Below are positions 9,688 through 11,205 of a stretch of DNA of 13,511 bases, one piece after another. Origin of the DNA: a virus. Its lineage: Duplodnaviria > Heunggongvirae > Uroviricota > Caudoviricetes. The notes under the pieces were generated by a model. It saw only the letters and a program-made list of their open reading frames with translations. It made no database searches and was not told the DNA's origin. The position numbers and the translations under genes are program-made. Position 1 is the stretch's first letter. Each line of letters begins with the position of its first letter. The stretch is from IMG/VR virus record IMGVR_UViG_2606217106_000016, one strand, 5' to 3'.

Positions 9688-9729
9688 GTTTTGTTGATGC
9701 GCCGTATCGTCGCTGTATTCCCTCATTAA

Positions 9730-10589
9730 CAGAGACCGCAGCCCGACAGGGAGACTCCTCTGCGCGAGTGTGCGGGGATATTTTCCCTGACACCGGACGG
9801 AAAGCTGACCGCTAAAAATGCGGATATCAGTGGCAGTGTGAATGCGAACGCCGGGACGCTCAACAACGTCACGGTAAATGAAAACTGTACGATTAAGGGC
9901 ATACCGGCCCGAAAGGTGAGCAGGGCGACCCGGGAGGTCCACAGGGACCGAAGGGCGACAAGGGGGATACAGGAGCTGCAGGCCCGGCGGGGCCACAGGG
10001 ACCGAAAGGGGATACAGGAGCCGCAGGCCCGGCGGGGCCACAGGGACCGAAAGGAAATACAGGAGCCGCAGGTCCGGCAGGGCCACAGGGACCAAAAGGG
10101 GATACAGGAGCCACAGGTCCGGCAGGACCGCAGGGACCGAAAGGGGATACGGGAGCCGCAGGCCCGGCAGGGCCACAGGGACCGAAAGGGGATACAGGAG
10201 CCACAGGTCCGGCAGGGCCACAGGGACCGAAAGGGGATACAGGATCCACAGGTCCGGCAGGTCCTCAGGGACCGAAAGGGGATACGGGAGCCGCAGGTCC
10301 GGCAGGACCACGGGGACCATCCGGAAGTCCTGACAGCGGGCTGTTTGGTGTCGGTTCTTTTGTCCTTGCGGCGTATTATGCGACGAGTTATTCGGGGGAT
10401 ATGGCACCGGGCGCAGCTATTGCCGGCTCATCACTGTCTGCATGTTGCCTTTCGAATGGTACTCCCCTGGTTGCTTCCTCTCGTGTGGGGGAGACCCGTT
10501 TACCGGGCACGTGGCGTGCATGTAGTCCGGTAATATGGACATCTGCTGCAGGTACAAGACAGGCAGGATTATTTCAGCGCATATCATGA
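9730..10589 (+). pseudogene. Tail-fiber (side tail fiber-like) C-terminal fragment with collagen-like Gly-X-Y repeats; no start codon and one frameshift
   Basis: Frame 1 opens right after a TAA at 9727-9729 and reads ...[42 protein letters not shown]. The collagen frame (frame 0) opens after TAA 9894-9896 and reads [43 protein letters not shown]... through a C-terminal non-collagenous domain to TGA 10587-10589. No ATG/GTG/TTG initiator precedes either part. Confidence 0.6.
9936..10305. repeat. About eight tandem copies of a 45-bp unit (GGGCCACAGGGACCGAAAGGGGATACAGGAGCCGCAGGCCCGGCG and variants) encoding a 15-aa collagen-like unit [15 protein letters not shown]
   Basis: Direct inspection: the unit recurs with a few substitutions (GCC/ACC/TCC, GGC/GGT); the triplet periodicity keeps several frames open on both strands. 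Confidence 0.85.
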
Positions 10590-10596
10590 GGAGGTC

Positions 10597-11205
10597 ATGG
10601 TGGATAAGGGAAAAGAGATTATTGCAGTACGAAATGCAGCCTGCAACGAATACGGCGGGATAAACTGTGAGGTGCAGTTTGAAGATGCGGTCAATGAAAA
10701 AGGAGAGCAGGTATGGCTGCCGTATACCGCAACGGAAACGGATAATACAGAACACGGAAAAGCCTTGTGGTCGGGGCTGACAGCAGGAACATACGGAAGT
10801 GTGAGTGCCTTTGTTGCCACGGAAGCAATACTGGAAGCGGCAAAGGCGGCGAAAAGGGAAGAGATTAATATCTGGCGTGATGTGCAGGAGAATATGGAAT
10901 ACGTGATGGAATTCAACGGAAGGAACTGGGATTACGGCAAGAAGACGTTGTCCAGGATAAGCACGACACGACTGATGGCAGAGAACAACCGTCTTCCGGA
11001 AGGGTTTGCCTGGACGGACGGGGATAATAATGTGGTGCCGGTAACGGCGGCGGAGATAATTGCGCTGGCAGATGCGACAGAGCAGGCGATGTTTGCGAAA
11101 GGTGTGGAGATTAATACACGTCAGCTTCAGATGAAAGCAGAGGTTGAGGCGCTGACAGAGCTGAAGGCGATCCGCAGTTATGTTGTCGGATGGCCTGCAA
11201 GCTGA
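10597..11205 (+). CDS. Tail fiber assembly/chaperone-like protein (Tfa-like, DUF4376-like C-terminus), 202 aa
   Basis: Starts 8 nt after the tail-fiber fragment stop, behind AGGAGG 10589-10594 (the spacing also allows GTG 10600). Motif LPEGFAWTDGDNNVVPVT resembles the lambda Tfa LPENFTW region. Position immediately 3' of a tail-fiber gene. Confidence 0.5.
   Translation: MVDKGKEIIAVRNAACNEYGGINCEVQFEDAVNEKGEQVWLPYTATETDNTEHGKALWSGLTAGTYGSVSAFVATEAILEAAKAAKREEINIWRDVQENMEYVMEFNGRNWDYGKKTLSRISTTRLMAENNRLPEGFAWTDGDNNVVPVTAAEIIALADATEQAMFAKGVEINTRQLQMKAEVEALTELKAIRSYVVGWPAS

Follow-up and report, generated by a model that had tools for sequence, protein, structure and literature searches.

A probable decayed lambda-like prophage of Escherichia coli with its lysis genes joined to the 3' part of a side-tail-fibre gene

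Genes and features from the lysis cassette to the att core

The window, by which we mean the whole stretch of DNA that was analysed (13,511 nucleotides), is contig JNRB01000093.1 (GCA_000704465.1). The strain name on the deposited protein KDY49956.1 is E. coli 2-460-02_S3_C1. An IS421 end occupies 1-563 and cuts the element at 563/564, so its left end is unavailable. The features discussed here are listed below; ST866 denotes the full-length reference prophage of the next section.

7232-7447, holin (gene table, ORFs)
8044-8577, lysozyme (gene table, ORFs)
9220-9687, plus strand, Rz (i-spanin); PF03245 Phage_lysis, E = 3.6e-50
9440-9625, plus strand, Rz1 lipoprotein ORF embedded in Rz; lipobox read directly off the translation
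9675-9815 as called, plus strand, small conserved ORF, 5' part only, cut by junction 1
9688-9780, plus strand, normal post-Rz sequence from the parent phage, identical to intact relatives
9779-9780, junction 1, endpoint of a 20,911-bp deletion; 2-bp TA microhomology
9781-9902, plus strand, internal gpJ fragment, 124 bp, frame 1; 98.4% identity to ST866 gpJ
9838-10533, plus strand, chimeric ORF made by junction 2; GTG start in the J fragment
9890-9902, junction 2, endpoint of a deletion of ~1,694 bp; imperfect 14-bp homology
9897-10589, plus strand, collagen-like side-tail-fibre 3' remnant, frame 0; residues ~168-397 of 397
10597-11205, plus strand, intact DUF4376 protein, 202 aa; PF14301, E = 8.8e-17, residues 81-188
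11350-11736, minus strand, YkgJ-family CxxCxxCC gene; PF03692, E = 1.3e-11
11864-11875, 12-bp att core CCTTCTTATTCA, right end of the remnant
12020-13138, tyrosine integrase of a tandem prophage; PF09003 and PF00589

The lysis cassette, with Rz as its last gene, is apparently intact. The PF03245 match and the ORF coordinates place the end of Rz at 9687, in agreement with the first-pass annotation of this DNA, which also described an open frame without an initiator about 40 bp past Rz. Such a frame exists; frame 1 has a stop at 9727-9729 and is open from 9730, 43 bp after Rz. The stretch 9640-9780 is 100% identical to the normal lysis regions of intact relatives, whose alignments stop at 9780. 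Residues 7-35 of the small ORF that overlaps the end of Rz match profile positions 2-30 of 81 of phrog_6954.

The coding sequence that follows had been taken for the N-proximal part of a tail fibre. A coding remnant does lie there, but it derives from gpJ, the tail tip/host-specificity protein, and not from a side fibre. It corresponds to about residues 1046-1085 of a 1231-aa J, matches phrog_2148 tail fiber protein (E = 4.2e-19), and is 73% identical over 40 aa to J of another relative, L004 (BLASTP). Collagen-like repeats and a C-terminal domain come next (9897-10589), as had been described; a 45-bp unit is repeated 7.9 times over 9963-10318 (TRF), with a match to PF01391 (E = 1.1e-21). Pfam recognizes Collagen only in this remnant, while the full ST866 gene yields phage_tail_N plus Collagen, the N-terminal domain (PF08400, E = 3.1e-38) spanning fibre residues 1-127 that are lost from the window fragment. 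Judged by its sequence, the remnant is derived from a PF08400 (Stf-like) side fibre and no longer qualifies as one. It is 99% identical to residues 168-397 of the ST866 fibre, with one substitution in the retained fibre sequence; a second difference, at fibre residue 169, falls in the J-derived sequence of junction 2. The remnant is not translatable as a fibre: a start is lacking, a TAA in the fibre frame directly precedes it (9894-9896), and the J piece is in another frame. No ATG, GTG or TTG occurs in the fibre frame before 10401, the first possible start.

The fibre stop at 10587-10589 is followed by GGAGG at 10590-10594, 2 nt before the ATG of the DUF4376 gene at 10597. The best PHROG for the encoded protein is phrog_1141, over its full length (E = 3.4e-79), and the exact 202-aa protein is present on 90 contigs of E. 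coli. The same order of fibre and then DUF4376 gene is found in ST866 and in other genomes. The gene right after the fibre had been called Tfa-like; the position is right, but the family is DUF4376/phrog_1141 and not lambda Tfa. No match to PF02413, the lambda Tfa family, was obtained for 10597-11205, where a Pfam scan at E <= 0.01 gives PF14301 alone.

On the right arm, between the fibre module and att, the YkgJ-family gene occupies an equal position in L004; gene callers start it further in (11350-11679, 109 aa). Collinearity of the arm with ST866 extends to 11875, where the match to the attR side, with 32 bp from the 3' end of potB, stops; matching to the attL side of ST866 starts at 11864. 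After the att core a second, tandem prophage of the same integrase type begins with its integrase arm. Contig JNRC01000035.1 runs on into potB, potA, pepT and phoQ.

Collinearity with a full-length prophage

As reference we used the full-length lambdoid prophage that occupies potB/potC in E. coli ST866 (NZ_CP077646.1, 508.5-555.4 kb). In blast comparisons with its reverse complement, window 9159-9780 maps to 21181-21802 (97.1% identity), 9779-9902 to 42714-42837 (98.4%), and 9890-11875 to 44519-46505 (99.65%). These blocks have equal order and orientation and are separated in ST866 by gaps of 20,911 bp and ~1,694 bp. The left block, 564-2891, is 99.8% identical. Rz and fibre lie ~22.3 kb apart in ST866, which bears out the 20-25 kb previously cited as the normal spacing of Rz from stf/tfa, and the terminase, portal, capsid and tail genes occupy 6289-27199 of the prophage extract. 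The gene table of the whole window, with its Pfam families, contains no terminase, portal, capsid or tail gene. Thus the morphogenetic module is missing between Rz and the fibre, as the first-pass annotation had maintained, and the large internal deletion it proposed is borne out by collinearity with a full-length prophage at the identical site.

The two elements share the order DUF968, rusA, Q, tRNAs, SASA esterase, holin, lysozyme and Rz, and at the right end J, lom, fibre, DUF4376, ykgJ and att, although lom is lost in the window. Unlike the window, ST866 keeps the ~22 kb packaging/head/tail module, lom and the whole 397-aa fibre gene, is without IS421 and IS1414, and has its DUF4376 gene split in two. 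The ST866 prophage is itself slightly damaged (J is frameshifted and the small terminase subunit is partial, besides the split DUF4376 gene) and is not the actual parent, and the deletion sizes are therefore estimates.

Junction 1 was resolved by aligning the window with the two parental flanks in a three-way comparison. The deleted segment corresponds to 21803-42713 of the reverse-complemented ST866 prophage. The left breakpoint lies at 9779/9780, since thousands of relatives align up to 9780 and then stop; an endpoint was thus found by alignment as had been proposed, but not at about 9688-9730, where it had been sought. In a search of the whole window against complete E. coli genomes, all but one of the alignments among the matches listed end at 9780, and with a probe spanning the junction all alignments among the matches listed do so. 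No genome spans junction 1 among 5,426 complete E. coli genomes. By the ST866 reference, this deletion of 20,911 bp would have run from a point 93 bp past Rz to ~2.8 kb into gpJ, removing the packaging region (where cos would lie), terminase, every head and tail gene, and the greater part of J.

Junction 2 is located by the overlap of the blast matches 9779-9902 and 9890-11875, by alignment of the flanks, and by the translations. The flanks share imperfect homology, CGATTAAGGGCAT versus CGATAAGGGGGAT. This second deletion would have extended from J, 124 bp past junction 1, into the collagen-like side-fibre gene at about codon 170, taking with it the 3' 454 nt of J, lom, and fibre codons 1 to ~169, including the start codon and the N-terminal tail-attachment domain. 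The join is out of frame, passing from frame 1 (J-derived) to frame 0 (collagen). A frameshift had been reported near 9894-9915; the change of frame is real, but its cause is junction 2 and not a sequencing error. The chimeric ORF at 9838-10533 reads the collagen repeats out of frame as an Arg-rich repeat. Its name in the deposited record is 'fibronectin type III family protein' (KDY49956.1). It has no Pfam family on record and forms a singleton protein cluster from 3 contigs. Most likely it is no real gene, and its annotation is best treated as a deletion-junction artefact.

The element is collinear with a full-length relative save for discrete gaps, has lost virion-essential genes, and sits at an att site. 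We conclude that it is very probably a decayed lambda-like prophage of E. coli whose head, tail and packaging genes have been deleted, leaving the lysis genes fused to the 3' part of a fibre gene. It is also very probable, on the same comparisons, that the prophage is a Stx-phage-like lambdoid inserted in an E. coli chromosome between potB and potC. The correct label for the element is defective prophage, and for the fibre remnant, pseudogene. This is ordinary prophage decay and no new system. Beyond correct annotation its importance is small. It does provide a clean, base-resolved example of microhomology-mediated loss of a lambdoid morphogenetic module in which lysis genes, tRNAs and a sialate esterase gene are kept, and it illustrates that what looks like a frameshift within a prophage gene may be the mark of a deletion junction instead of a sequencing error.

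Origin of the two junctions

We searched complete E. coli genomes, GTDB representatives, JGI metagenomes and IMG/VR for carriers, the GTDB representative and JGI metagenome scans being exact-pattern scans for each junction. Three IMG/VR contigs were the only carriers found, and they carry both junctions; an intermediate with a single junction is absent from the 5,426 complete E. coli genomes, the GTDB representative genomes, the JGI metagenomes and IMG/VR. The three contigs are base-identical across the junction regions (9688-9960) and differ elsewhere, by 21 substitutions clustered at 6801-7288 and one extra 45-bp repeat. Two further NCBI assemblies each differ from the window by one base over the shared span. 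As the three contigs have one IMG identifier, we considered whether they are three copies in one genome that arose by amplification or mobility. Over 2.6 kb of their sequence is identical and each contig stops at the att core, a pattern that points to separate assemblies or to breaks in the assembly graph. In the phage collection searched, the fibre plus DUF4376 module gave only short collagen-repeat matches covering <= 14% of the query, and no sequenced phage there has it.

The reading we prefer, and consider very probable, is that two deletions by illegitimate recombination within the prophage left the scar at 9688-11205. An alternative is that the contig is an assembly or sequencing artefact, either chimeric at repeats or carrying a homopolymer error near 9900 in a continuous gene. 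The window is a draft contig assembled from short reads, the fibre gene does contain 45-bp tandem repeats, and the two closest assemblies (JNRB and JNRC) have adjacent accessions and may share one project. Against this, the repeats do not reach the junctions, which are in unique sequence, and the same junction sequence is present in the three IMG/VR contigs despite their differences elsewhere, as well as in CAJSJS010000042.1, a separate assembly of a different accession series that is one base off the window over 8449-11819. A sequencing error does not account for the frame change. The change falls exactly where homology passes from J to the fibre gene 1.7 kb away, and the junction sequence recurs in other assemblies; it does not coincide with a homopolymer, and we reject an error of that kind. 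We therefore consider an artefact extremely improbable.

It is equally hard to credit that the fibre C-terminus and the gene behind it are an orphan cassette of a Gin/Pin/Cin-type invertible host-range segment, as the first-pass annotation had offered as its second option. Invertible fibre segments are well established (Mu G, P1 C, e14 P), and cryptic prophages of K-12 retain stf/tfa/pin remnants. Such segments do carry promoter-less, start-less C-terminal fibre exons followed by an assembly gene. However, the window holds no called gene with a resolvase/invertase Pfam family on record, and that annotation had itself seen no invertase gene, and its only recombinase is the tyrosine integrase at 12020-13138. 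A scan for a 26-bp hix/gix-type crossover site, with TTNTCNNAAACCNNGGTTTNNGANAA taken as the consensus, returned 0 matches even with 3 mismatches allowed. Inverted repeats flanking the segment are limited to 16-17 nt with 81-82% complementarity, no more than chance would give, and the segment has no alternative fibre exon in the opposite orientation. On the minus strand, the ORFs across 9433-10916 run over conserved plus-strand genes (Rz, fibre and DUF4376), and those in the repeat region are complements of the stop-poor collagen array. The remnant is, moreover, collinear with one uninterrupted 397-aa fibre gene in ST866.

A serious though still unlikely alternative to two deletions is that both junctions arose in one complex event, for instance by replication template switching or broken-fork repair, with 124 bp of J copied between skips of 20.9 kb and 1.7 kb. 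The retained J island is very short, both junctions have microhomology, and they occur only together in every copy recovered. Yet missing intermediates are weak evidence in a lineage sampled ~4-6 times, and decaying prophages commonly have two independent deletions at microhomology. Whether one event or two deletions took place makes no difference to what became of the element. Junction 1 could in principle also have come from recombination between prophages. The late region, 4182-8706, is only 78-96% identical to ST866, and on that comparison the element is mosaic.

Residual function and known parallels

DUF4376 proteins have been reported as fibre chaperones in Alteromonas phages, and a need for them in folding or trimerisation of the cognate fibre has been shown only for the proteins of those phages (PMC7289586, PMC10579305). 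The proteins of phages V22 (gp27) and A5 (gp9) resemble the window protein in their C-terminal DUF4376 and in the position of the gene immediately 3' of the fibre. However, hosts and phage types are unrelated, and in the window, where chaperone activity is putative, the client fibre gene is truncated. By analogy, the window protein is a probable tail-fibre chaperone or accessory protein.

An IS1414 fragment sits inside the Q antiterminator gene, upstream of Rz, and breaks it. No promoter-like site was found between 9500 and the DUF4376 gene. With Q broken and no such site, the DUF4376 gene has probably lost its normal late transcription. As the fibre is untranslatable and late transcription of its neighbour is probably lost, the region would be a fossil without function of its own. 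At most it might passively provide co-resident lambdoid phages with homologous DNA. Could the remnant nevertheless have been kept as useful, with the DUF4376 chaperone acting in trans or the DNA serving as a recombination donor for host-range switching of co-resident phages? The DUF4376 gene is intact in the window and split in ST866, its relatives in Alteromonas phages are chaperones, and a second prophage with equal integrase type lies in tandem. Apart from the transcriptional defects above, however, the copies are all nearly identical and give no power to detect selection, while the singleton cluster of the junction ORF (3 contigs) indicates a rare young lineage and not a maintained module. 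Such usefulness is improbable, and the joint reading, in which a single template-switching event made the scar and the fibre C-terminus and DUF4376 gene persist because the tandem prophage can draw on them for recombination or for a chaperone, is slightly more so.

The closest parallel to the decay proposed here is DLP12 of E. coli K-12. Like the window, it keeps rusA, Q (quuD) and a lysis cassette (essD-rrrD-rzpD/rzoD), has many IS elements (IS5 in nmpC), and retains a fibre-module accessory gene, tfaD, with all head and tail genes gone. Its layout is Q, lysis genes, nohD, the aaaD pseudogene and tfaD, with the terminase pseudogene aaaD directly joined to tfaD. DLP12 differs in keeping nohD and part of the terminase large subunit and in having wholly lost the fibre gene, whereas the window is broken 93 bp past Rz, preserves the 124-bp J island and 58% of the fibre gene, has DUF4376 instead of Tfa, and occupies potB/potC. 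Qin and Rac are further cryptic K-12 prophages of comparable kind. The parental module can also be compared with lambda Stf/Tfa. Both come after J and lom as the rightmost part of the late operon, and in each the fibre is followed by a small accessory gene; the parental fibre also carries PF08400 ('prophage tail fibre N-terminal'). The parental module differs in its collagen-like shaft and in its accessory gene, which is DUF4376/phrog_1141 with no PF02413 at E <= 0.01.

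Gene content and the counterpart in ST866

By gene content, the window represents the late half of a prophage of the lambdoid, Stx-phage-like kind. It constitutes the entire contig JNRB01000093.1 (assembly GCA_000704465.1), and the GenBank deposit of the junction-spanning ORF carries the name Escherichia coli 2-460-02_S3_C1. The gene table of the contig has no entry at all for packaging, head or tail functions, as the first-pass annotation had said of the morphogenetic module.

Features of the window
Left part: DUF968 protein and RusA (gene calls, Pfam)
2433 onward: Q antiterminator (PF03589), broken at about 2891
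3811-4060: tRNA genes for Met (CAT) and Arg (TCG, TCT), lying between Q and the esterase gene
4582-6516: DUF1737/SASA/DUF6645 protein of 644 aa, a NanS-p-type sialate O-acetylesterase, apparently intact
Lysis cassette: class II holin, lysozyme and Rz with embedded Rz1 (gene calls, Pfam)
8578-9135, lysozyme-Rz gap: 8655-8867, 8848-9120 and 8870-9001 in the ORF list; 8870-9001 and 8965-9120 as called genes
Ending at 9687, plus strand: Rz (PF03245, E = 3.6e-50), confirming the end assigned earlier
10597-11205, plus strand: DUF4376 gene, intact, 202 aa, with GGAGG just upstream
11350-11736, minus strand: YkgJ-family CxxCxxCC gene on the right arm, flanked by the fibre module and att
Right of the YkgJ-family gene, minus strand: lambda-type integrase and excisionase

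Stx phages carry ileZ-argN-argO at the position equivalent to that of the tRNA genes, so the CAT tRNA here may in fact be of the Ile2 type. The small ORFs of the lysozyme-Rz gap (43-90 aa) include some that look membrane-spanning by eye; related phages carry these ORFs too, annotated as hypothetical proteins. The YkgJ-family gene, which occupies the same place in ST866 and RM10809-3 and has no PHROG match, looks like a phage cargo gene.

By megablast, none of 5,426 complete E. coli genomes spans the Rz-fibre region, and the window matches as separate pieces. E. coli ST866 has a prophage of the same type, about 47 kb long, between potB and potC. Four blocks of the window align with that locus.

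Window blocks and their positions in the ST866 locus, in window orientation (L005rc)
564-2891: 11344-13670, 99.8% identity, left block up to Q
9159-9780: 21181-21802, 97.1%, Rz and post-Rz sequence
9779-9902: 42714-42837, 98.4%, inside gpJ
9890-11875: 44519-46505, 99.65%, fibre gene (codon ~165 onward), DUF4376 gene, ykgJ and the final 32 bp of potB

Lysis cassette and fibre remnant thus come from a single type of prophage at a single site in the chromosome, minus two segments. In ST866, about 22.3 kb separate Rz from the fibre gene, within the 20-25 kb that the first-pass annotation expected. Its observation and main interpretation, a large internal deletion, are correct; the collinear blocks and endpoint alignment give a size of 20,911 bp and reveal a second deletion of about 1,694 bp, and several details have been corrected. 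The esterase region (4582-6516) is the most diverged from ST866 (78-85%) and varies among the IMG/VR copies too, so the late region is mosaic. The ST866 prophage, otherwise full-length, has its DUF4376 gene split into two ORFs (L002 6708-7316) and its gpJ gene frameshifted; the DUF4376 gene of the window is intact.

Sequence of the two junctions

At junction 1 (9779/9780), the post-Rz parent runs to ...GGGGATA and is followed by the J parent from TATTTTCCCTGACA..., the alignment giving an overlap of only 'TA'. The 20,911 bp deleted, as sized on the ST866 reference, are annotated there as a YlcI/YnfO gene, the small and large terminase subunit genes, the portal, protease, decoration, major capsid and head-tail connector genes, all tail genes and the 5' ~2.8 kb of the gene for gpJ, the central tail tip protein. 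A 263-bp probe over this junction matched 3,909 records, none of which covered at least 80% of it; the best matches are 100% identical over 9640-9780 and end precisely at 9780, so 9688-9780 is ordinary post-Rz sequence and does not belong to a fibre gene. A small conserved ORF is represented in it by its initial ~35 codons (phrog_6954, profile positions 2-30 of 81), the deletion having cut it short. The J-derived T-run directly after a GC-rich post-Rz hairpin creates a terminator-like site at 9758-9787 on the plus strand, which may be coincidental.

An open frame without an initiator does follow Rz: frame 1 has a stop at 9727-9729 and is open from 9730. Its reading as N-proximal tail-fibre sequence, however, does not hold, since beyond the post-Rz stretch 9781-9902 is a gpJ fragment. 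Its 40 codons hit tail-fibre and host-specificity families in PHROG (phrog_2148, E = 4.2e-19); in an intact gpJ of 1231 aa, taken from a different E. coli prophage, they align with residues 1046-1085.

At junction 2 (9890-9902), the J parent reads ACGATTAAGGGCAT|GCTGGAG, the fibre parent GGCGATAAGGGGGAT|ACCGGCC and the window ACGATTAAGGGCATACCGGCC, which places the exchange inside an imperfect 14-bp similarity with an exact 'AT'. The ~1,694 bp deletion removed the last 454 nt of J, lom, and fibre codons 1 to ~169, joining frame 1 to frame 0. The frameshift noticed earlier near 9894-9915 is thus a real frame change caused by deletion. Sequencing error is ruled out, because the homology partner switches at that point and because three IMG/VR contigs, unlike the window in other parts, have the identical sequence over 9688-9960. 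Contigs of two more NCBI assemblies, JNRC01000035.1 (compared over 1-11875) and CAJSJS010000042.1 (over 8449-11819), each differ from the window by a single base.

The first-pass annotation had also considered an orphan cassette of the kind found in invertible segments. We reject this reading: no resolvase or invertase family is on record among the window genes, a hix/gix-type degenerate 26-mer has no match in the window at up to 3 mismatches, inverted repeats on either side of the segment are limited to 16-17 nt at 81-82% complementarity, and the fibre remnant aligns collinearly with an ordinary fibre gene that has no interruption. The junction sequences, with 2 bp of microhomology at one and an imperfect 14 bp at the other, point to RecA-independent illegitimate recombination. 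The two junctions may have arisen successively or in a single complex event; complete E. coli genomes, GTDB representatives, JGI metagenomes and IMG/VR yielded no carrier of just one of them.

The fibre remnant and its accessory gene

Frame 0 has a TAA at 9894-9896 and then encodes the collagen-like array and non-repetitive C-terminal domain described earlier, ending at 10589. The array consists of a 45-bp unit repeated 7.9 times at 9963-10318 (Tandem Repeats Finder; Pfam Collagen, E = 1.1e-21). One of the three IMG/VR contigs carrying both junctions (L007) has one extra unit, its length being that of the matching window span plus exactly 45 bp; the other two (L006, L008) lose alignment register inside the array, which fits a copy-number difference. 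Apart from one substitution, the remnant is the same as residues ~168-397 of the ST866 fibre (397 aa). It lacks a start codon, with no ATG, GTG or TTG in its frame before 10401, and lacks the N-terminal domain PF08400 ('prophage tail fibre N-terminal'), found at residues 1-127 of the complete protein; no fibre can be made from it.

Gene callers chose a chimeric ORF at 9838-10533: its start lies within the J piece, and because the collagen repeats are then translated in the wrong frame, the product has an Arg-rich repeat. Its protein cluster is a singleton, seen on three contigs, and GenBank names the product 'fibronectin type III family protein' (KDY49956.1, KDY59762.1). We regard it as a junction artefact and the name as a misannotation. 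The repeat is open in two plus-strand frames and is crossed by minus-strand ORFs at 9433-10407 (324 aa) and 9893-10249 (118 aa), which are by-products of a stop-poor, GC-rich repeat and not genes.

The gene downstream, previously called Tfa-like, is indeed intact, but its product belongs to DUF4376 (PF14301, E = 8.8e-17) and matches phrog_1141 over its full length (E = 3.4e-79), with no match to the lambda Tfa family in Pfam or PHROG. In Alteromonas phages V22 and A5, DUF4376 proteins whose genes follow the fibre gene are reported to be fibre chaperones of a distinct type (PMC7289586, PMC10579305). 'Tfa-like' may reasonably stand as an analogy of role, not as family membership.

Decay of the remnant and its chromosomal ends

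Positions 1-563 are the end of IS421 (IS4-like), whose transposase ORF runs off the contig; everything leftward is cut off. The complete genomes of 2013C-3181 and N51 share the same IS-prophage junction, as they match 1-600 at 100%. At Q (2433-3700), ~2.1 kb of ST866 is replaced by 1.29 kb, and an 812-bp IS1414 fragment (IS256 family; truncated transposase at 2792-3622) takes the place of the Q 3' end and the sequence beyond. With Q broken and the stretch from 9500 to the DUF4376 gene showing no promoter-like site, the lysis genes and the DUF4376 gene are unlikely to undergo late transcription.

The element is a familiar cryptic lambdoid prophage and its state is ordinary prophage decay. DLP12 of K-12 has rusA, quuD, essD, rrrD, rzpD/rzoD, borD, nohD, aaaD (a terminase pseudogene) and directly tfaD, with no head or tail genes; the window remnant differs only in its breakpoints, integration site, surviving J island and type of fibre accessory gene.

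On the right, the ST866 attR-side match ends at 11875 and the attL-side match starts at 11864, giving a 12-bp core, CCTTCTTATTCA (11864-11875). From there to 13511 the window has integrase and excisionase genes that belong to a second prophage with the same integrase type, so the remnant stands in tandem with another prophage; E. coli RM10809-3 has a comparable layout. In the nearly identical JNRC01000035.1, by contrast, the remnant continues straight into potB (from 12007 of that locus, L009), which could be a real strain difference or an alternative assembler path through the repeated arm. The last 32 bp of potB (11844-11875) are supplied by the phage, with a perfect 14-nt inverted repeat 33 bp downstream (11778-11811). 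In lysogens the prophage thus separates potAB from potCD, and potCD expression might be affected.
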